The notes under the pieces were generated by a model that was not told where the DNA came from, searched no databases, and saw only the letters and a program-made list of their open reading frames with translations. Made by a program: the position numbers and the translations under genes. From NCBI RefSeq assembly GCF_009831105.1, contig NZ_WUUQ01000002.1, positions 30,001-62,000 on the forward strand: DNA of 32,000 nucleotides, given 5' to 3'. Below are positions 135 through 18,291 of the stretch, piece after piece. The stretch comes from Copranaerobaculum intestinale. Lineage in GTDB: Bacteria; Bacillota_I; Bacilli_A; Erysipelotrichales; Erysipelotrichaceae. Position 1 is the stretch's first letter, and each line of letters starts with the position of its first letter.

Positions 135-1889
135 TTATTTTGTAAGCTCCAAAAATTCCTGAATACGTGCTTCCGCAGTCTTTAATGCGGATACCCAGAA
201 GGCTTTATCGGTAACATCGATATCTGCCATTTTCGCAACATCTTCAACACTGGATACGGTGGTCGCATGAAGCAGAGCCCGATATTTCGGTACAAAGCTT
301 TCACCCTCCTGCTGATATTTCACAATCAATCCACGGGCAAACAGTCCGCCGAATGCATATGGAAAGTTGTAGAAGCTTAAATCACTTCCATAATAATGAC
401 TCTTGCACACCCACATGTACGGATGCAAATACTCTTGATCAAGGCCATCACCATATGCTTTGCGCTGACATTCAAGCATTAGTTCCTTTAAATCCTTGGC
501 AAATAGGAAACGATCCTTACTTGCTTCAAATACTGCTGTTTCAAACAGGTAACGGGAATAAATATCACACATGATCTGGGTGAGATCCTGCAGTTGATTC
601 TCAATCAGGGCAATTTTTTCTTCACCTTCTGCCGCATCGATCGCCGCATTCATAATGATATTTTCGTTAAAGGTTGACGCTGTTTCTGCCACCGGCATAC
701 TGTAATCCCAATTCAACGGCAAATGGTCTTCAATCTGCTTGCCATGGTAGGCATGACCGAGCTCATGAGCCAGGGTTACCACATCGCCGATCGCGCCGTC
801 AAAATTGGTCAGAACCCGACTGGCTTTGAGGTAAGGTAAATTACTGCAGAAAGCGCCTCCGACTTTTCCTTTACGCGGGAAGAAGTCAATCCAATCCTCA
901 TCAAATGCGGTTTCGATCATATCGGCTAAATCCGGGGCAAATCCTTTAAAATGATCAATCAGATAGGCCTTGGCGTCTTCAATCGTAAAGGATTGATGGG
1001 ATGAACCAAGCGGTGCGAACAATTCGAACCAAGGAAGCCCGTTTTTATATCCCAACAGTTCTCCCTTACGTTTTAAATACGCATGGAAAACCGGCATATA
1101 TTCATCCATAGCCGCAAACATCGCATCAAGCGTTTGCCGCTGCATCCGACTTTGATGAAGTGTCATATCAAGTGGAGAATCGTAGCCGCGCAGACTACTG
1201 ATTGTGTTTACTTGGGATTTGATCTCATTTAAAGAAAAACTGATTGCATCATCAATTTTTTCATATGCTTTCAATTCAGCCTCATACGCTTTTTTACGAG
1301 TATCTTTATCTTCACTGTATGCCATGTTTCGAATTTCGGATAGCGTGACTTCTTTTCCTTCGTACTCGGCAGTGACAATACTTGTCAGGTAAGACTGCAT
1401 GTCTCCCCAGGCAGTACCTCCGGACAAATCCATTTTCGTGATTACTTCCTCAACCTCATCACTCAGCAGATATTTGGCATCCGCTTTGGTTTGGATAAGC
1501 ATGTATTGATAAGGCTGCAGTGCCTCATCCTGAGCGATCATGGCTTCCAAATCATCAATATTCGCAATAAAGCGATTTATCATCGCAATGGCTTTTGATG
1601 ATTCACTCAGCTTATGCTGAAAGCGATTCATCTGTGCCGTTGTTTCACTGTCCTGGGTATTTGTACTCTGACTAAGAGAAATAAAAGAGCCCAGTTTTGA
1701 TGACAGAGTTACCATTTCTTCAAGAACCTCAATAATATTTGTCAATGTTGCGTGCTTGTCATTCTCATTCTTCCAGTCCGGAAAAGCATTGATTTTATCT
1801 GTGCATTGATCCAGCTTCTGAAAATCCTGTTCATAAGCTGGGTCATCATATCCCTTATACAGACTGTCTAAAGACCAGCGTTCATTCAT
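135..1889 (-). CDS. pepF: Oligoendopeptidase F family zinc metallopeptidase (M3B)
   Basis: 584-aa ORF with the thermolysin-type zinc motif HELGH (LAHELGHAYHG). Length and overall pattern are typical of PepF. No competing ORF. Confidence 0.85.
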   Translation of the reverse strand: MNERWSLDSLYKGYDDPAYEQDFQKLDQCTDKINAFPDWKNENDKHATLTNIIEVLEEMVTLSSKLGSFISLSQSTNTQDSETTAQMNRFQHKLSESSKAIAMINRFIANIDDLEAMIAQDEALQPYQYMLIQTKADAKYLLSDEVEEVITKMDLSGGTAWGDMQSYLTSIVTAEYEGKEVTLSEIRNMAYSEDKDTRKKAYEAELKAYEKIDDAISFSLNEIKSQVNTISSLRGYDSPLDMTLHQSRMQRQTLDAMFAAMDEYMPVFHAYLKRKGELLGYKNGLPWFELFAPLGSSHQSFTIEDAKAYLIDHFKGFAPDLADMIETAFDEDWIDFFPRKGKVGGAFCSNLPYLKASRVLTNFDGAIGDVVTLAHELGHAYHGKQIEDHLPLNWDYSMPVAETASTFNENIIMNAAIDAAEGEEKIALIENQLQDLTQIMCDIYSRYLFETAVFEASKDRFLFAKDLKELMLECQRKAYGDGLDQEYLHPYMWVCKSHYYGSDLSFYNFPYAFGGLFARGLIVKYQQEGESFVPKYRALLHATTVSSVEDVAKMADIDVTDKAFWVSALKTAEARIQEFLELTK

Positions 1890-1963
1890 AGTATCCCTTC
1901 TTTCTTATTCACATGCTATTATTATACCATAATTCAAAGATTTCATGAGTACGAAAGAAGTGC

Positions 1964-2605
1964 TTAGCGCAAGGATCGGCGGGAGCGGGAGTATACGATA
2001 TAGGCGGTTGTCATCAAAACGATACTGTAGCCGACAATGATCGGAAAGCTGAATGGAATTGTCTCAAATAAATTGATCGATCCGAACAGAAAAAAGAAAC
2101 CGGCCGAAGCAACTTTTACAGTATTTTCACGCAGATGCGAAAAAATGATCTTTCCGGCGAAGATACCGAGGATATTAGCAAGGATAAGTCCTGCCGCGGC
2201 GCCAAGAAATATGGCAAAATGCTCCTGATGATGGGCGGCTATCGCTACGGTAGCCAGTTGAGTCTTATCACCGAGCTCAGCTAATAGAAATGCTCCGGCT
2301 ATTGATATCAGCGGGAAACGATAATTGACTCCTTGAGAACCGCCTGATTCATCTTCCGCTCTTAGAGAACTAAGTCCAAAGAATAAAAACAGCAGAGCTG
2401 CTACCGTTTGTACAATCTGCATGGGAATAAAGTCACCGATGATGTCACCGGCCAATACTGATAGACCGGAAATTGTCAGAACTCCCAAGATCATGCCGAA
2501 CGCGACTGTGCGTGCCCGATAGCGATTGGTAAGCGCCATTACCATCAATTGTGTTTTATCAGCCATTTCCGCGATAAAAACCAGTAAAAAAGTATGCATG
2601 AACAT
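1964..2605 (-). CDS. GDT1/TMEM165 (UPF0016) family Ca2+/Mn2+ cation transporter
   Basis: Two internal repeats each carry the E-x-G-D-K-T signature (AEMADKTQL, AELGDKTQL) within hydrophobic multi-TM halves. The ORF-track start 2659 was trimmed to the ATG at 2605, preceded by GAGGTGA with a 5-nt spacer. Confidence 0.8.
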   Translation of the reverse strand: MFMHTFLLVFIAEMADKTQLMVMALTNRYRARTVAFGMILGVLTISGLSVLAGDIIGDFIPMQIVQTVAALLFLFFGLSSLRAEDESGGSQGVNYRFPLISIAGAFLLAELGDKTQLATVAIAAHHQEHFAIFLGAAAGLILANILGIFAGKIIFSHLRENTVKVASAGFFFLFGSINLFETIPFSFPIIVGYSIVLMTTAYIVYSRSRRSLR

Positions 2606-2734
2606 GTTGGTCACCTCAGTCGAGTATATGAAGCGAAAAAGAAAAACATGTTTGATCATAACATAATCCTAAATTATGATTTTATGCTGATGATCGTAAA
2701 CATGCCAGTAGGATATTAATCCTTCCAACAAATA

Positions 2735-2776
2735 AAAAGTACACACTTGCTGATGCTGAGCAAATGTGCACTTTTT
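2735..2776 (-). terminator. Intrinsic terminator after the M42 peptidase gene
   Basis: On the minus strand: AAAAAAAGTGCACATTTGC-loop-GCAAGTGTGTACTTTTTATTT. The long GC-containing stem starts immediately after the TAA at 2777-2779. Confidence 0.7.
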
Positions 2777-3817
2777 TTATTGACAAATATAAGCAAATAC
2801 CAACTTCATGGTGTTTTCAATTCCCTGATAGTGCGTCCGTTCCATGCCATGACTTGCGTGAACACCAGGACCGATCAAGGCACCGCGAATATTATTTCCG
2901 CCTGCCATCGCGGCGCTGACATCACTGCCGTACATGGGATAAATATCCACAGCATACTGCAGCTTTTGTTCCTTGGCCAGCTTGATAAGCTTGTTTGTCA
3001 TATCATAATCATACGGACCACGGCTGTCCTTGGCACAAATGCTGACATCATATTCCGTACAGCTTAAGTCTGAACCGATACAGCCCATATCCACAGCCAG
3101 TAGTTCATTGATCTGCTTTGGAAGATTGGATGCACCGTGACCGACCTCTTCATAGGTAGACATAATAAAGATTGTATCCTGCATCGGTTTGATCGAATCG
3201 TCACGCAGCTGTTTTAAAACCCCAAACAACAGAGAAGCACTGATCTTGTCATCCAGAAAGCGTGATTTAACAAATCCGCTTTTGGTTATTTGTACCTTTG
3301 GATCATATGCGATGAAATCCCCATTATTGATGCCCAGCTTTTGTACATCTTCTTTTGATTCCACAATTTCATCAATGCGCACTTCCAGATGATCCAGATC
3401 GCGTGCAAGCGTGGATGCATCCGGATACACATGTGCTGCCGGAGAAGTGGAGAGAATCGTACCGGAATAGGTTTTGCCTTCACGGGTGTGGATGATGCAA
3501 TACTCACCGTCAAGCGTGGGGAGAATCGGTCCGCCGACATCGGTAACCGCGAGTTTTCCGTCTGCTTTGATCGAGCGTACCATCAATCCTAAGGTGTCGG
3601 TATGAGCGGATACGCCGATGGTTCGATCGTGATGCAAGCCTTCCACATGAATGAATAAATTGCCTTTTTCATTTCGTGATGTTGGATAGCCTAATTTCTC
3701 TGCTTCTTCCTGCAGGAAGGAAATCGCATGCTGGGTATAGCCGCTTGGACTATCAATGCTCAGCAGTTTGGACGCAATGTCCAATACATATGTTTTATCA
3801 AAGTTCATATCCAGCAT
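2777..3817 (-). CDS. M42 family metallo-aminopeptidase (PepA/YsdC/FrvX-like)
   Basis: 346-aa ORF. It shows the M42-type pattern VSAHTDTLGLMVRSIKADGKL...VGG followed by EEVGHGA. The start codon lies 2 nt after the pyrR stop. Confidence 0.8.
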   Translation of the reverse strand: MLDMNFDKTYVLDIASKLLSIDSPSGYTQHAISFLQEEAEKLGYPTSRNEKGNLFIHVEGLHHDRTIGVSAHTDTLGLMVRSIKADGKLAVTDVGGPILPTLDGEYCIIHTREGKTYSGTILSTSPAAHVYPDASTLARDLDHLEVRIDEIVESKEDVQKLGINNGDFIAYDPKVQITKSGFVKSRFLDDKISASLLFGVLKQLRDDSIKPMQDTIFIMSTYEEVGHGASNLPKQINELLAVDMGCIGSDLSCTEYDVSICAKDSRGPYDYDMTNKLIKLAKEQKLQYAVDIYPMYGSDVSAAMAGGNNIRGALIGPGVHASHGMERTHYQGIENTMKLVFAYICQ

Positions 3818-10430: not shown

Positions 10431-11168
10431 ATGCTGGGAAGAATACATTCATTTGAGAGCTTTGGCACGGTTGACGGACCCGGCGTTCGGTTTGTCATAT
10501 TTGTACAAGGCTGTGTGATGCGCTGTCGCTATTGCCACAATCCGGATACCTGGGATCAAAGCGGAGGCAGCGAATATGAGAGTGAAGCCGTCCTTCAGGA
10601 AATTTTGAAATATCGGTGTTATATTGAAAAAGGCGGTGTAACGATCACCGGGGGTGAACCGATGATGCAGTTGGATTTTGTATTGGAACTCTTTGAAAAA
10701 TGTCATAAACAGGGTTTGCATACTTGTATGGATACATCCGGAATTGCTTTTGATAAGAGTGATCCGGTGTTTATGGCTAAAATTGATCGATTGATGCAGG
10801 TGTGTGATCTGTTTTTATTGGATATCAAACATATTGACAGAAAAAAACATCAGGAGCTAACCGGGCAAAGCAATGAACGGCCATTACAATTCGCGAAGTA
10901 TCTGAATCATTTTCATAAACCGATGTGGATACGGCATGTGCTGGTTCCCGGTTATACAACGGATGAAGATGATTTAAAACGGCTGCGCAAATTCCTGGAT
11001 ACACTCGATTCAATCGAACGGATTGAGGTGCTCCCTTATCATCGAATGGGAGAAGTAAAGTATGAAAAATTGGGTATACCCTATGTGCTGAAAGGAGTAG
11101 AGCCGCCAACCTCTGAACAGATACGGCAGGCAGAAGCTATTTTAGGATGTGATCGATATGGGAAATAA
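10431..11168 (+). CDS. pflA: Pyruvate formate-lyase activating enzyme (radical SAM)
   Basis: N-terminal GRIHSFESFGTVDGPGVRFVIFVQGCVMRCRYCHNPDTW contains the CxxxCxxC cluster motif. At 245 aa the length is typical. Confidence 0.9.
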   Translation: MLGRIHSFESFGTVDGPGVRFVIFVQGCVMRCRYCHNPDTWDQSGGSEYESEAVLQEILKYRCYIEKGGVTITGGEPMMQLDFVLELFEKCHKQGLHTCMDTSGIAFDKSDPVFMAKIDRLMQVCDLFLLDIKHIDRKKHQELTGQSNERPLQFAKYLNHFHKPMWIRHVLVPGYTTDEDDLKRLRKFLDTLDSIERIEVLPYHRMGEVKYEKLGIPYVLKGVEPPTSEQIRQAEAILGCDRYGK

Positions 11169-11436
11169 ACCTTATCAGCTCTTGGAAATTACGTCAGAGG
11201 GATGTGCGAGCTGTGTGACAATGAATGCGGTAATTCAGCAAATTGCCAAACAGCGAGATGATATGTCCGCAGAATCAAAAAATGTGAAACAATTTACCCA
11301 AGCCCAGCTGCAAAAGCTTGGGGTTGAAAAAGTTCCGGTACTTTTATTGATGTGTGATCAAGCGGTATTGGGCAGTGTCTACGGATATCAGCCGTATGAA
11401 ATATTGGAATTATGGTTGGAGAGTAAAATCGGGTAA
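11158..11436 (+). CDS. Small thioredoxin-fold protein with CxxC (CASC) motif
   Basis: 92-aa ORF overlapping the pflA 3' end by 11 nt. It has SEGCASCV near the N-terminus and a KVPVLL beta-strand motif typical of Trx-like proteins. The upstream AGGA is weak. Confidence 0.55.
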   Translation: MGNKPYQLLEITSEGCASCVTMNAVIQQIAKQRDDMSAESKNVKQFTQAQLQKLGVEKVPVLLLMCDQAVLGSVYGYQPYEILELWLESKIG

Positions 11437-11465: not shown

Positions 11466-11494
11466 TTGACAAAAAAGAGACAGCTGAGTATACT
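11466..11494 (+). promoter_or_regulatory. Sigma-A promoter of pflB
   Basis: TTGACA (11466-11471), 17 nt, TATACT (11489-11494). This places the transcription start just upstream of the riboswitch P1 stem. Confidence 0.65.
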
Positions 11495-11504
11495 TTAAAC
11501 ATAA

Positions 11505-11572
11505 GTCATATGACTGACGGAAGTGGAGTTACCACGTGGAGTATGACCAATAGCAAGCCGACCGTCTGGGCA
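11505..11572 (+). promoter_or_regulatory. ZTP riboswitch aptamer (pfl motif)
   Basis: P1 is GTCATA/TATGAC. It encloses TGACTGACG (consensus UGACUGGCG), the P2 hairpin GTGG-AGTTA-CCAC and GTGGAG. After a linker comes the 3' subdomain GCCGACCGTCTGGGCA (consensus CCGnCCGCCUGGGCA). Pseudoknot partners show a compensatory change (GACG:CGTC instead of GGCG:CGCC). It lies directly upstream of pflB, the gene the motif is named for. Confidence 0.8.
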
Positions 11573-11606
11573 ATCTGAAAAGCCTGGAATGTCGGCTTTT
11601 CTCTTA
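11556..11606 (+). terminator. Riboswitch expression-platform terminator
   Basis: AAGCCGACCGTCTGGGC-loop-GCCTGGAATGTCGGCTT followed by TTTCTCTT. Its 5' arm is the 3' aptamer subdomain, so ligand-bound folding and the terminator are mutually exclusive (ON switch). Confidence 0.7.
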
Positions 11607-11626: not shown

Positions 11627-13624
11627 ATGCGCGATGAATGGTATGGATTTGAAGCCGGTACATGGACGAATGAGATAGATGTACGCGACTTTATTCAACA
11701 CAACTACACTCCCTATGAGGGCGATGACAAATTTTTAGCGGGTCCTACCGCAGCCACAAAACAGCTTTGGGATCAGGTTATGGAACTCAATAAACAGGAA
11801 AAGGATGCCGGGGGCGTGTTGGATGCGGATACTTCGGTTGTTTCTACGCTGACTTCTCATCCAGCCGGATATTTGAATAAAGAGCTGGAAAAGATTGTTG
11901 GATTTCAGACCGATAAGCCGTTCAAGCGAGCGTTACAGCCGGTTGGCGGAATTAAAATGAGTGAAAATGCATTAAAGGAATATGGATATGAAATCGATTC
12001 TAAGGTGAAGGAAATCTTCACAAAGTATCGGAAGACACATAACCAGGGTGTATTTGATGTATATACGCCGGAGATGCGCAAGGCACGTCATTGCGGTATT
12101 ATTACCGGGCTGCCGGATGCTTACGGCCGGGGAAGAATCATCGGTGATTATCGTCGTATTGCATTATACGGCATTGATCGTTTGATCGAAGAAAAAGAGG
12201 AAGTAAGAGCAATTCTTTGCGGGTCAATGAGTGAAGAAAAGATTCGTGACCGAGAAGAATTGATGGAACAGATCAGAGCTTTGAAAGCGATGATCGAAAT
12301 GGGCAATATTTATGGCTGTGATTTATCGCGTCCTGCCAAAACGGCTCAAGAAGCCATTCAGGCAACCTACTTCGGTTATCTGGCAGCGGTAAAAGATCAA
12401 AACGGCGCGGCGATGTCGATCGGACGTATTTCCACATTTTTGGATATTTATATCGAACGGGATTTAAAAAACGGCGTCATAACCGAAGCAGATGCACAGG
12501 AATTGATGGATCACTTCGTAATGAAGCTGCGTTTGATCAAGTTCATGCGTACTTCCGAATATAATGATTTGTTCAGCGGTGATCCAAACTGGGTAACCGA
12601 GTCGATTGGCGGTATGGGAGTAGACGGTCGTACATTAGTAACTAAGAACTCTTTCCGTATTCTGCATACACTGTATAATCTGGGACCGGCGCCGGAACCG
12701 AATCTGACAGTTTTATGGTCACCGCGTCTGCCGAAGGAATTTAAACGTTTCTGTGCAAAAGTTTCCATTGAAACAAGCTCGATCCAGTATGAAAACGATG
12801 ACCTGATGCGTCCGGATATGGGTGATGATTATGGAATAGCCTGCTGTGTTAGCTGCATGCGCATCGGTAAGGATATGCAGTTTTTCGGAGCTCGTGCCAA
12901 TCTTGCGAAAGCGTTATTATATGCGATCAACGGTGGAATGGATGAGAAGAAAAAGGAACAGGTATCGCCTCGGTTTGAACCGATCACCGGTGATTACTTG
13001 GAATTTGATGAAGTGATGATGAAATATGATCAGATGCTGGATTGGCTGGCAGGTTTATATGTCAATACTTTGAATATCATTCACTATATGCATGATAAAT
13101 ACTGCTATGAAGCAGCAGAAATGGCCCTGCATGACTATGATGTGCGCCGTTTCTTTGCGACTGGCATTGCCGGTTTATCGGTTGTCGCCGATTCTCTTTC
13201 GGCAATCAAATATGCGAAGGTGAAAGTTATCCGGGATGAAGACGGTCTTGCGGTTGATTTTGAAACGGAAGGCGACTTCCCGAAATATGGAAATAATGAC
13301 GATCGGGTTGATCTGTTAGCGGCAGATTTGGTGAAACGTTTCATGAACAAAATCAAACAGCATAAAACCTATCGTAATGGAGTACATTCAATGAGTATCT
13401 TGACGATTACAAGCAATGTAGTATATGGTAAAAAGACGGGTTCTACACCGGATGGCCGAAAGGGCGGCATGCCGTTTGCGCCGGGTGCGAATCCAATGCA
13501 TGGACGGGATACAAACGGCGCACTGGCTTCTTTGGAATCGGTCGCAAAATTGCCGTATGAATATTCCCGTGACGGAATCAGCAATACATTCTCCATAGTG
13601 CCGGATGCACTTGGGAAAAAATAG
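11627..13624 (+). CDS. pflB: Pyruvate formate-lyase (formate C-acetyltransferase), catalytic body lacking the glycyl-radical domain
   Basis: Collinear with canonical PFL. The catalytic Cys pair is in [28 protein letters not shown], and the ORF ends ...[20 protein letters not shown]. The start was trimmed to ATG 11627 (MRDEWYGF), preceded by GGAAGGAG. Confidence 0.85.
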
Positions 13625-13636
13625 GAGGGTAAGCAT

Positions 13637-13870
13637 ATGTCTGATAGAATTGATAATTTGGTTACACTGATCGATGGATATGCGCAAAATGGCGGACATC
13701 ATTTAAATGTAAATGTATTCAATCGGGAAACGCTGTTGGATGCACAGGAGCACCCGGAGAAATATCCACAGCTTACGATTCGTGTTTCTGGTTATGCGGT
13801 TAACTTCAACAAGCTGACAAAAGCGCAGCAGGATGAGGTTATATCCAGAACGATGCACGAAAGATTTTAA
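13637..13870 (+). CDS. Glycyl-radical domain of pyruvate formate-lyase as a separate 77-aa ORF (GrcA/YfiD-like module)
   Basis: [43 protein letters not shown] carries the RVSGYAV glycyl-radical fingerprint. It is in the same frame as pflB, 12 nt after its TAG. It has its own AGGAGG (13623-13628) 8 nt before the ATG. Confidence 0.8.
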
Positions 13871-13891
13871 GAGGCGAAAGCCTCTTTTTTG
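13871..13891 (+). terminator. Intrinsic terminator of the pfl operon
   Basis: GAGGC-gaaa-GCCTC followed by TTTTTT, immediately after the TAA. Confidence 0.8.
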
Positions 13892-13892
13892 T

Positions 13893-15172
13893 ATTATATA
13901 GGTAACTATTTTATAAATAAAAAGTAATTTGAAACTGCTTATCAAAACAAATGAAAATACATATATAGTCAAAATGAAATTAGAGTTATCTACTCTCCAA
14001 GATGAAATTATTATTAATGATTTCTATTATTCTTGGAGTAAGACAAAAATTTCATTTGATAAGAAAAAAGAATTGCAGTATCATGGAAAATTCAGTTTTT
14101 CAAAAATTCTTAAACGAAATTATGAAGTTTCGATTTTAAATGATGATTTGTTTAAAGAAAGTTCTTTTGATACCCGTAAATGGCTATTGCATAAAGGAAG
14201 TTTTGGAACAGGTAAGACAACACTTGATATTTTAAGTCTTAATAATTTAGGATATATACCAATCATAATTTCTCCATGGGAAGATAATTATGATGATGAT
14301 TTTTTATATCTCATATTTGATAAAATGAAAAAGAAAAGTAAGAAGATTTTCTTTTTACCAGAAAGGCATACGTTTATTATTTTTATAGTTTCTGTTTTTG
14401 CTGTTTTTACTGCTTTATATACAATGTTGAATAGTATTGATAATTTTTCAAAAGTCAATCATTTAGTGTTTTTTAATCTAACCAGTTATACATACTTATG
14501 TATATATCTATTAATCTTATTCATTTCATTCATGTCTATTTTATATTTGTTACCATATTTAATTATTTTTAAAAAGAATTCTTCTAGAATTTATCAGGAT
14601 TTTTATCTGAATAATATCAAATATATGTTGAATAGAAATAGTAAATTAATACTTTTGGTAGAAGATATTGATCGATTAGATCCTAAATATATATGCGATA
14701 TTTTAAGAATTCTCAGTAAACTGAATAATTCTCAATGGAATTCAGATCGTAAACTAGGTATCATATCGTGTAATCATAAAGTAATTGAAAATCATGATAT
14801 GACTTTTAATAAAATTGCATGTGGGGAGTTATTTGCAGATGTTAAATCGCGTAAATATATGTGGAAATTTCTAAGAAAGAGTTTGGAAGCATTGGAAAGA
14901 ATTAAAAAAATGAGTTTTCATATTGAATATTCAAGAATTTCTGAAGAGAATTTTATATCCGACATATCATTCAGACTAATAAAGGATACTTTGGAAAAAT
15001 TGATTAATGCTGAAGATAATGAAGAAGCAATATCCTATTTAAATGAGATTTTAATAATTGATTAAGACTAGTAAACTATATATGTTTTTTATCACGATCG
15101 CTTTATACAAACATAAGAAGAAGTTGTAAATGATTCCTAATTAGCAAATGTTAAATAGAAAATGAAAAATAT
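13893..15172. other. AT-rich single-gene insertion between the pfl terminator and the tRNA-Trp terminator
   Basis: By eye the base composition is far more AT-rich than the flanking genes. Codon usage is dominated by A/T-ending codons. It is bounded by two terminators and a tRNA 3' end. Confidence 0.5.
13974..15065 (+). CDS. Minimal KAP-family P-loop NTPase with membrane insert
   Basis: Walker A is GSFGTGKTT, followed by the KAP-typical SPWEDNYDDDF. Hydrophobic helices (FIIFIVSVFAVFTALY; YLCIYLLILFISFMSILYLLPYLIIF) are inserted before the Walker B LLVEDIDRLDP. The ATG at 13974 has no clear SD; an alternative TTG lies at 13929. Confidence 0.7.
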   Translation: MKLELSTLQDEIIINDFYYSWSKTKISFDKKKELQYHGKFSFSKILKRNYEVSILNDDLFKESSFDTRKWLLHKGSFGTGKTTLDILSLNNLGYIPIIISPWEDNYDDDFLYLIFDKMKKKSKKIFFLPERHTFIIFIVSVFAVFTALYTMLNSIDNFSKVNHLVFFNLTSYTYLCIYLLILFISFMSILYLLPYLIIFKKNSSRIYQDFYLNNIKYMLNRNSKLILLVEDIDRLDPKYICDILRILSKLNNSQWNSDRKLGIISCNHKVIENHDMTFNKIACGELFADVKSRKYMWKFLRKSLEALERIKKMSFHIEYSRISEENFISDISFRLIKDTLEKLINAEDNEEAISYLNEILIID

Positions 15173-15207: not shown

Positions 15208-15281
15208 TGGCAGGGGTGACAGGAATTGAACCCGTATCAGCGGTTTTGGAGACCGTTATACTACCATTGTACTACACCCCT
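15208..15281 (-). tRNA. tRNA-Trp (anticodon CCA), CCA end encoded
   Basis: The reverse complement AGGGGTG-TA-GTAC...GTAT-A-ACGGT-CTCCAAA-ACCGC-TGAT-ACGGG-TTCAATT-CCTGT-CACCCCT-G-CCA folds as a 74-nt cloverleaf. It closely resembles Bacillus tRNA-Trp. Confidence 0.9.
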
Positions 15282-17172: not shown

Positions 17173-18162
17173 ATGTTAGAAATAGAAGCGGGAACCATTT
17201 TTGAAAATTTCAAAGCTATTAAAGAAGCAACTGGTTGCGTTCCATATAGCGGGATTGCGATAAATAAAAAGAATAAACATATTTTACTTGTCTCAAAAGT
17301 GGAAGATAATATTTATCATGATCATCAAGAGGGACCTATTTTATTTTATCGAGGAGCTGGTCAAGTCGGAGATCAAACAGTTACTCGAGGTAGTAATAAA
17401 ACATTATATAATGCTCTGAAGAAGATAAATAAGTATCATGTGTATTTGGCAATAAAGGATAAAAACTATATTTTTAAAGGCGAAGTTATACTATCCAAAA
17501 ATTATTCAGATGTATTATATGAGAGAAAACCTGATAAAAATGGAGATGAACGGCAGGTTGTAATATTTCCATTAGAGATAAAGGATAATAATTATGAAAT
17601 GGAATTTAAGCTATTTAATGAAACACTTCATAATTTAAATATTGATAATGTGTTTTTGGAGGAAGATAAAGTACATACTAATTTACCAGCTAGTGGTTCA
17701 TATTCAAGCAGCAACAAGGTAATCAATCGTATTGCTTTTGAAAAGCAAAGAGAGCAAGCAAAGAGAATAGGAGATCTATCTGAACAATTAGTTGAAAAAC
17801 ACGAAAAAGCTTTCTTGGAAAGTATTGGCAGAATTGATTTGGCTGAGCAGGTTAAAATTATAGAAAATGATGGTGAAGGTTTTGATGTTCTTTCTTTTAT
17901 GAGTAATGGTGATAAGAAATTTATTGAAGTAAAAGGCACTACACTTGGAAAATTTACACCATTTTTCATTAGTGAAAATGAATTGCAGAAAGCAGAAGTC
18001 TTGGAAAATTATCGTCTATATCGTGTTTATCATTTAAGTAGTAAACCGAAATTCACTTCTTATACTTTGCGCGAATTTTATGAAATTTTTAATATGGAAC
18101 CAGCTTCTTACATATGCAAAGTACGAACAAAGGAAGATTATGAAAATCATCAAGATTCTTAG
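17173..18162 (+). CDS. Putative modification-dependent (type IV-like) restriction protein: N-terminal SRA/YDG-like domain + C-terminal DUF3883 PD-(D/E)xK-like domain
   Basis: The C-terminal 110 aa match the DUF3883 pattern (GDLSEQLVEKHEKAFLES...GFDVLSF...KKFIEVKGT...FFISENELQKAE...YRLYRVY). The N-terminus has an SRA-like signature (GIAI..., LFYRGAGQVGDQTVTRGSNKTLYNAL). The gene is visibly AT-rich. Confidence 0.65.
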   Translation: MLEIEAGTIFENFKAIKEATGCVPYSGIAINKKNKHILLVSKVEDNIYHDHQEGPILFYRGAGQVGDQTVTRGSNKTLYNALKKINKYHVYLAIKDKNYIFKGEVILSKNYSDVLYERKPDKNGDERQVVIFPLEIKDNNYEMEFKLFNETLHNLNIDNVFLEEDKVHTNLPASGSYSSSNKVINRIAFEKQREQAKRIGDLSEQLVEKHEKAFLESIGRIDLAEQVKIIENDGEGFDVLSFMSNGDKKFIEVKGTTLGKFTPFFISENELQKAEVLENYRLYRVYHLSSKPKFTSYTLREFYEIFNMEPASYICKVRTKEDYENHQDS

Positions 18163-18216: not shown

Positions 18217-18291
18217 GGCGCGTTCGGCAAGTGGTTAAGCCATAGCCCTCTCAAGGCTACATCACGGGTTCGAGTCCCGTACGCGCTACCA
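18217..18291 (+). tRNA. tRNA-Glu (anticodon CTC), CCA end encoded
   Basis: GGCGCGT-TC-GGC-AAGTGGTTAA-GCC-A-TAGCC-CTCTCAA-GGCTA-CATC-ACGGG-TTCGAGT-CCCGT-ACGCGCT-A-CCA. This is a 75-nt cloverleaf with the short D-stem typical of tRNA-Glu. Confidence 0.9.

Follow-up and report, generated by a model that had tools for sequence, protein, structure and literature searches.

Two adjacent genes for one enzyme: a probable two-subunit pyruvate formate-lyase in Copranaerobaculum intestinale

The question raised by the pfl locus of Copranaerobaculum intestinale DONG20-135 (family Erysipelotrichaceae) is whether pyruvate formate-lyase (PFL), an enzyme central to anaerobic pyruvate metabolism and to the formate supply of the gut, can be natively composed of two polypeptides. 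Within the stretch of 32,000 nucleotides (nt) that was analysed, referred to here as the window, the PFL reading frame is closed by a TAG stop after 665 amino acids (the body), and a second open reading frame (ORF) of 77 amino acids resumes shortly downstream and carries the glycyl-radical loop. We estimate at about 0.8 the probability that this locus encodes a two-subunit PFL in which the small protein is an obligate subunit. What the analysis shows directly is the gene anatomy (Table 1), the conservation of the split across taxa, purifying selection in the body as well as in the small ORF, and a set of predicted regulatory signals.

The two ORFs lie in the same frame, and a spacer of 12 nt separates the TAG of the body from the ATG of the small ORF, which ends in ...HERF. 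In the PFL equivalog profile TIGR01255 (744 positions), positions 2-661 are matched by the body and 665-743 by the small ORF, and the body by itself reaches 1115.8 bits, above the cutoff of 994.2 that defines a PFL, as well as 736 bits with the PFL-like family of Pfam. The catalytic pair Cys406/Cys407, equivalent to C418/C419 of E. coli, lies in the motif IACCVS and does not vary in two alignments, one with 28 and one with 23 relatives. The glycyl-radical loop (RVSGY), in contrast, is absent from the body polypeptide and is carried in trans by the 77-amino-acid ORF. By alignment, the lysine of the terminal ALGK motif corresponds to Lys676 of E. coli PflB, so that the body stops at the equivalent of residue 677 and the small ORF takes over at 678, aligning to PflB 678-756 with its Gly52 at the position of PflB Gly734 and YfiD Gly102. 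In PflB numbering, the cut precedes Gly734 by 57 residues and the stretch mimicked by YfiD by 15.

The original prediction for this DNA, made from the sequence alone, had described these coordinates, the overlap of the TAG with an AGGAGG Shine-Dalgarno (SD) sequence, the start codon of the small ORF, the shared frame and the IACCVS motif, and every one of these elements is present. Its proposal that the frame is collinear with a canonical PFL is borne out by the tiling of TIGR01255, which the two products fill without loss or duplication. It had also equated the small ORF with the C-terminal portion of GrcA/YfiD, and residues 18-75 indeed align to YfiD 68-125, the structured part of that protein; the N-terminal region of approximately 60 residues of YfiD (a protein of about 127 amino acids) has no counterpart. 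The placement of the cut at a domain boundary survives in part, as the partition is clean in TIGR01255 but bisects the Gly_radical family of Pfam, of whose 106 positions the body holds 1-48 and the small ORF 52-106. The small ORF additionally matches NF038360 (rad_fix_GrcA3) over model positions 4-77 of 78.

The same arrangement recurs in other strains. The index of the assembly collection lists the exact 77-amino-acid protein for 86 blocks, and all ten loci examined from independent samples show a 665-amino-acid gene followed by a 77-amino-acid gene. The genes downstream differ among these ten loci, which therefore represent different strains. In nine of them the junction formed by stop, SD and ATG is identical, whereas the tenth, with stop, SD and ATG all retained, differs at three spacer bases. 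Relative to the most diverged strain (locus L010), 17.5 nonsynonymous and 216.5 synonymous differences were counted in the body, and none and 21, respectively, in the small ORF. In comparisons with other genera, nonsynonymous differences per site (pN) range from 0.11 to 0.21 and synonymous ones (pS) from 0.69 to 0.98; pN and pS are given in place of the corresponding substitution rates (dN/dS) because synonymous sites are near saturation and dN/dS is mostly not computable at this distance. As the differences are overwhelmingly synonymous, both genes are maintained by selection, and both the body and the small ORF are under purifying selection.

The split is also shared well beyond the species. 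Nearly every homologue that is 81-99% identical to the small ORF is a stand-alone protein of 77-83 amino acids, and the closest relatives of the body (78-100% identity) mostly measure 665-670 amino acids. In Dielma fastidiosa and Breznakia pachnodae the operon is formed by pflA, a thioredoxin-like gene, a body of 667 or 668 amino acids and a 77-amino-acid gene, although the molecular details of the junction vary. The body of Dielma ends in ...SLGKD-TAA and is followed, after a gap of 10 nt, by an out-of-frame small gene; that of B. pachnodae ends in ...ALGKDDE-TAA with a gap of 15 nt, and B. blatticola has a gap of 23 nt after a TAA. In all of them the small gene has its own SD and ATG. In Hungatella the cut falls at the same ALGK, but the body continues with a tail of 44-62 additional amino acids that varies between strains, while the small gene (81 amino acids, with its own SD) overlaps the body by 17 nt and pflA lies downstream.

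A scan of species-representative genomes, in which the 80 loci most similar to the body of the window among the matches listed were classified by direct translation, yielded 63 loci split after ALGK and 17 fused ones; this sample leans towards relatives of a split query, so that 63/80 should not be read as the share of split genes among PFLs in general. Among these 80, split genes are found in Ruminococcus albus, R. callidus, Blautia, Sellimonas and many Lachnospiraceae and Oscillospiraceae, and also in Christensenellaceae, Olsenella and other Atopobiaceae, Gastranaerophilales, spirochaete metagenome-assembled genomes and Erysipelotrichia, all three Atopobiaceae loci that were fetched being split. 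Fused genes belong to Bacillus, Anoxybacillus, Neobacillus, Clostridium, Clostridioides difficile, Romboutsia, Macrococcus and a small number of further taxa. The small gene could be parsed in 59 split loci, where its ORF measures 77-83 amino acids throughout and an SD core lies within the 15 nt upstream in 57 of them; among the ATGs of this DNA as a whole, the proportion is approximately 10%. Between body and small ORF, the gap ranges from -17 to +406 nt (median 193), and the three relative frames are represented by 15, 24 and 20 loci, the 15 being in frame.

The Clostridia-type split bodies (L014-L016, L021-L099) carry acidic, often cysteine-rich tails of 13-62 residues after ALGK, with the recurring motifs VFxGDLDIE, DCACCEPN and GACxxPTLFEGLD, and Hungatella strains differ in tail length (bodies of 727 and 709 amino acids). 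These tails might dock the small subunit or bind a metal. A tailed split pfl operon also occupies positions 204-3515 of MT838895.1 (L102), a 4.8-kb scaffold from human faeces deposited as "UNVERIFIED: Bacteriophage sp.", and comprises a 711-amino-acid body, a small subunit of 80 amino acids from its ATG and pflA; an adjoining 391-amino-acid ORF resembles malic enzyme by eye. The scaffold is probably a mislabelled bacterial fragment. A connection with phages was rejected, as this best match among gut "phage" records is a bacterial-type operon on an unverified scaffold.

In a midpoint-rooted neighbour-joining tree of 203 body sequences, computed without support values, the fused enzymes of the Bacillus/Clostridium type lie outside and two large split clades inside. 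One of these contains bodies without a tail (1-5 residues after LGK), including those of the window, Dielma, Breznakia and Traorella, and the other the tailed bodies (13-62 residues), which come from Clostridia, Atopobiaceae and further groups. Nested within the split clades are a few fused lineages, among them the Massilicoli timonensis group (742 amino acids, 81% identical), sister to the group of the window. Parsimony requires at least six changes between the split and the fused state on this tree, a count that is uncertain because the tree has no support values. The fused M. timonensis gene (L100/L101, 3001-5229) sits between an HD-domain gene and an EF-G-like gene, with neither pflA nor a thioredoxin-like gene adjacent, and may be a relocated or re-fused copy. 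When the junction DNA is aligned with it, the region appears as an indel hotspot in which no vestige of the direction of change can be read.

From these observations, the following course of events can be proposed for the two-subunit enzyme. A single transcript from the promoter-like site, gated by the ZTP riboswitch, would carry both genes to a single terminator, and ribosomes would end the body at the TAG overlapping AGGAGG and then initiate the small subunit separately. The body would contribute the barrel and the catalytic Cys406-Cys407, and the small subunit the equivalent of E. coli 678-759, namely a helix, the final strand of the barrel, the loop bearing the glycine and the C-terminal helix, with the two assembling non-covalently. 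PflA would abstract hydrogen from Gly52 of the small subunit, and the radical would pass in trans to the cysteines of the body, where pyruvate and coenzyme A (CoA) would be converted into acetyl-CoA and formate. That the subunits assemble and can be exchanged, that activation takes place on the small one and that the radical is transferred in trans are steps that we infer. O2 cuts PFL at the radical glycine (PMC8683613, PMC13450708); in a two-piece enzyme this cleavage would destroy only the small subunit (~9 kDa), and a fresh copy could then re-arm the body. Such a replaceable cartridge is a plausible advantage of the split, and the idea of the original prediction that the radical piece would be natively detachable and replaceable is a reasonable conjecture.

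The in-trans radical step has precedent, since both the E. coli GrcA/PflB pair and an engineered PFL(1-695) work. In E. coli, the Gly102 radical of GrcA acts intermolecularly on Cys419 of PflB, and PflB-G734A supports formate production in vivo together with GrcA (PMC12338860). The engineered PFL(1-695), once activated, shows kcat values of 121 ± 25 and 204 ± 32 per second with YfiD and with an N-terminally truncated YfiD, respectively (PMC8683613). YfiD alone is not activated, and its N-terminus matters for its activation (PMC8683613). Regarding physiology, Atopobium/Fannyhessea vaginae secretes formate, which hypophosphite suppresses, and no formate comes from a Gardnerella strain whose PFL gene is interrupted by a premature stop (PMC12208373). 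The formate of F. vaginae offers indirect physiological support, its own locus lying outside the Atopobiaceae loci verified as split.

Several points weigh against a two-subunit enzyme with an obligate small subunit. The engineered PFL(1-695):YfiD pair binds too weakly for isothermal titration calorimetry and is activated 32-fold less (PMC8683613), and efficient assembly of the natural pair is therefore an assumption. The natural cut nonetheless lies 18 residues earlier than the engineered one (677 versus 695), by which the small subunit gains a conserved …DNLVxLIDGY… segment, and this extra segment (PflB 678-692) may supply the affinity. No protein-level, electron paramagnetic resonance or activity data on a natural split PFL were found in the literature searched. 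A second, full-length PFL elsewhere in the genome is possible, the scans having covered the 32-kb window. The small ORF clears the GrcA3 cutoff only narrowly (158.7 versus 158 bits). The AlphaFold models, built on shallow alignments, have mean values of the confidence score pLDDT of 66.9 for the body alone and 53.8 for its closest fused homologue (P0184); both are too poor for any structural claim, which is why the cut was placed by sequence alignment to E. coli PflB. Finally, judging from the tree, the fused PFLs nested in the split clades, such as that of Massilicoli, suggest that the split is dispensable.

This last point leads to the alternative that survives best, according to which the enzyme does consist of two subunits, but the ALGK linker simply tolerates breakage, and splits and re-fusions drift without any cartridge advantage. 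The interleaving of fused and split forms in the tree, with its six or more state changes, speaks for such neutrality, as do the highly variable length and sequence of the junction and a linker that is variable even among fused relatives. Conversely, the split state has been retained in two very large clades with strong SDs, the Clostridia-type bodies gained conserved tails beyond the cut, a hint that they have adapted to being split, and the number of transitions is itself uncertain on an unsupported tree. We consider a neutral split possible, though it is not the outcome that we would expect.

The second alternative regards the 77-amino-acid protein as a classical spare part that repairs a full-length PFL encoded elsewhere, the adjacent body being an inactive remnant. 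In the databases the small protein does go by the name of autonomous glycyl radical cofactor GrcA or GrcA3, related organisms have fused PFLs in other genomic contexts, and a full-length gene could lie beyond the window, to which the scans were limited. A remnant, however, would hardly be expected to stay under strong purifying selection, to keep Cys406/Cys407 and to exceed the PFL equivalog cutoff, nor would the pairing of body and small gene next to pflA be expected to persist across genera. The N-terminal region of YfiD is missing from the small ORF, which scores 93.3 bits with the classical GrcA model TIGR04365, below the cutoff of 170. It also contains the segment equivalent to E. coli 678-692, which would be superfluous for the repair of an O2-cleaved full-length PFL. 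Additionally, no second PFL or other glycyl-radical enzyme was found among the other large ORFs scanned in the window. All this makes a mere spare part improbable.

Still less can be said for read-through or recoding, by which suppression of the TAG, or its decoding as pyrrolysine, would give a single-chain PFL of about 747 amino acids and leave the small ORF incidental. The shared frame of the two ORFs would allow it, and 15 of the 59 other split loci are in frame too, but the offsets of 15, 24 and 20 do not favour the in-frame layout, close relatives use TAA with out-of-frame spacers of 10 or 23 nt, and some gaps extend over hundreds of nt. In the window TAG closes 7 of the 28 long ORFs, among them all three stops on which the original prediction had based its argument against recoding, and a consensus SD and ATG are conserved before the small ORF. 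Recoding of the TAG, including as pyrrolysine, was rejected on the grounds of this ordinary stop-codon usage and of the out-of-frame relatives, and is very improbable. A single in-frame stop is the commonest sign of a base-call error and of a nonsense mutation newly arisen in an individual isolate. Either has a negligible probability here and was excluded: the 86 collection blocks with the exact product derive from many independent samples and assemblers, strains that differ at synonymous sites keep the stop, SD and ATG unchanged, and other genera and phyla share the architecture. The earlier argument for a functional split rather than decay or error therefore holds, and its proviso that the stop might be restricted to this isolate is answered by the ten split strain loci and by most relatives, which are split as well.

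For the two-subunit reading, the surroundings of the two genes are also informative (Table 1). The promoter-like, riboswitch and terminator signals fit one riboswitch-controlled bicistronic transcript as predicted from the DNA, although the promoter-like site is a consensus match only, and such sites are overall no commoner than in shuffled sequences. The riboswitch match is full-length (model positions 1-86 of 86) and lies in the 5' leader upstream of the ATG of the body; the same element occurs in the L010 strain, upstream of pflA in Dielma and at a fused Lachnospiraceae pfl. A hairpin GCCGAC...GTCGGC-TTTTCT, read by eye, overlaps the 3' end of the riboswitch and looks like a candidate expression-platform terminator. 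There is no terminator-like site between the body and the small ORF, and the sole convincing terminator is that following the small ORF. ZTP riboswitches are tied to folate stress, and the bicistronic signals are consistent with a working formate-producing enzyme linked to one-carbon demand.

Table 1. Features of the pfl locus of C. intestinale (positions in nt of the window; aa, amino acids)
Feature	Position	Strand	Remarks
pflA, radical-SAM activase	10431..11168	+	TIGR02493 PFLA 316.8 bits, cutoff 231.75; Pfam Radical_SAM, Fer4_12
Thioredoxin-fold CxxC protein, 92 aa, CASC motif	11158..11436	+	Pfam Thioredoxin_3 and related families
Promoter-like site TTGACA-17-TATACT	11466..11494	+	11/12 consensus matches
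ZMP/ZTP riboswitch aptamer (pfl RNA motif)	11500..11578	+	Rfam RF01750, 60.7 bits, gathering threshold 39
PFL catalytic body, 665 aa	11627..13624	+	Starts with ATG; C-terminus ...ALGKK; Cys406-Cys407 present; without glycyl-radical loop
TAG stop of body	13622..13624	+	Overlaps Shine-Dalgarno of next gene; invariant in 10 independent strain loci
Shine-Dalgarno AGGAGG	13623..13628	+	8 nt before ATG of small ORF
Glycyl-radical small subunit (predicted), 77 aa, GrcA3-type	13637..13870	+	Starts with ATG; radical glycine predicted at Gly52 in RVSGYAV
Intrinsic terminator hairpin AAGAGGC-GAAA-GCCTCTT and T-run	13869..13886	+	Directly after small ORF

The activase gene pflA keeps its position in all strain loci, in Dielma and in Breznakia. 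The thioredoxin-fold protein is approximately 30% identical to the product of the same-slot gene in Dielma and Breznakia, with C-A-x-C and GYQPxEIL invariant, and could act as a reductant, in thiol protection or in radical quenching. Its gene, between pflA and the body, is kept in the three genera (L011, 1691-1990; L017, 1534-1872). The slot just 3' of the small ORF, in turn, varies by strain. The window has there an ORF for a YobI-like P-loop NTPase (13929-15065, +), other loci (L001-L010) have an unannotated gene for 673-686 amino acids or a YbjQ-domain gene, and some strains also carry a gene with SRA/ScoMcrA and NOV_C domains a few genes further downstream. A tRNA gene lies close by (15211-15281, -), and the slot looks like a defence or mobile hotspot. 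Further along, a NOV_C-domain ORF of 329 amino acids (17173-18162, +) adjoins another tRNA gene (18217-18288, +); its counterpart in other strains is annotated as SRA_ScoMcrA plus NOV_C, a restriction-like element that only some strains carry.

With respect to what is already known, the original prediction had implied that the architecture is rare and new, a view that is not supported: 63 of the 80 nearest loci listed are split, both genes are annotated and NCBIfam holds a GrcA3 model. GenBank contains the two neighbours as MXQ73290.1 ("formate C-acetyltransferase", identical to the body) and MXQ73291.1 ("autonomous glycyl radical cofactor GrcA"). The gene arrangement, with its proteins deposited and GrcA3 curated, is thus already known to the databases, and the locus of the window is a regular member of a large class with existing annotation. 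Two PDB chains named "Formate acetyltransferase", which are naturally truncated bodies, end at or just past the junction, 38la (687 amino acids, no tail) and 38lb (739 amino acids, tailed). The former aligns to the body of the window with 1204 bits and is 83% identical to a no-tail body, and the latter is 89% identical to an Atopobium-like body. Both are absent from a PDB structure set ending 2026-04-08 and are probably recent releases, and, given these chains, split PFLs may be under characterisation by others. Besides E. coli YfiD (6owr), no small-subunit chain was found in the PDB. In the literature searched, neither a description of a natural split PFL nor the name "GrcA3" was found; a 2021 study gave only YfiD and Y06I as validated spare parts (PMC8683613), and a 2026 specialist review discusses only YfiD. 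The functional reading, of an essential subunit instead of a spare one, appears under-described, and the "spare part" label may understate it.

The class of split PFLs would probably surprise many glycyl-radical enzymologists. Should most clostridial and erysipelotrichial PFLs consist of two subunits, both the "spare part" and the ordinary-PFL annotations would misdescribe an essential subunit, and models that score a PFL as present from the large gene alone may mislead. The natural pairs would be suited to questions on the exit of the radical domain to the activase, on radical protection and on the repair of oxygen damage, and a detachable radical domain would provide an engineering handle for oxygen-tolerant formate and acetyl-CoA pathways. 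The most far-reaching version of this reading would make the natively two-piece PFL the predominant form in gut Clostridia, Erysipelotrichia and Atopobiaceae, working as a replaceable radical cartridge in which the small protein is an obligate, consumable subunit, O2 destroys nothing but this ~9-kDa piece and the ~75-kDa body is re-armed by a fresh copy and PflA, with enterobacterial GrcA/YfiD and phage Y06I as offshoots of such subunits. As a whole, this version is tentative and rather unlikely.

Among the known systems, GrcA/YfiD of E. coli is a small separate protein with the RVSGYAV loop, homologous to the PFL C-terminus, and in this the small ORF resembles it. The grcA gene is presumably not adjacent to pflB in E. 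coli. The small ORF differs in lacking a disordered N-terminus and in carrying the extra segment described above. YfiD is activated by the PFL activase and gives its radical in trans to the cysteines of PflB (PMC12338860, PMC8683613). PflB, however, retains its own glycyl-radical domain and GrcA serves as a backup, whereas the PFL adjacent to the small ORF has no such domain. Members of the GrcA3 family NF038360, for example from Dielma fastidiosa and Traorella massiliensis, belong to the same family as the small ORF, which is 82-92% identical to the named 77-amino-acid members. In those inspected (Dielma and Breznakia), pflA, a thioredoxin-like gene, a body of 665-668 amino acids and the 77-amino-acid gene follow one another as in the window, so that a name implying a repair part contrasts with a genomic context pointing to an obligate subunit.

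The engineered tPFL(1-695):YfiD pair (Andorfer et al. 2021, PMC8683613) is similar in that a PFL without radical domain is complemented in trans, although it is artificial and was cut 18 residues further downstream. Phage T4 Y06I and its relatives are likewise stand-alone glycyl-radical modules, and 1,585 phage records match the small ORF. Modules of this kind match only the core (query 18/19-75), as with YfiD, and act on the full-length PFL of the host. The single "phage" match of nearly full length that was examined is the bacterial-type operon of MT838895.1. Finally, benzylsuccinate synthase (alpha-beta-gamma) and 4-hydroxyphenylacetate decarboxylase also combine a large catalytic chain with one or more small chains. 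In those enzymes, it is the large subunit that keeps the radical glycine, and the small ones are unrelated accessory chains, whereas in the split PFL the small chain is the radical domain itself.

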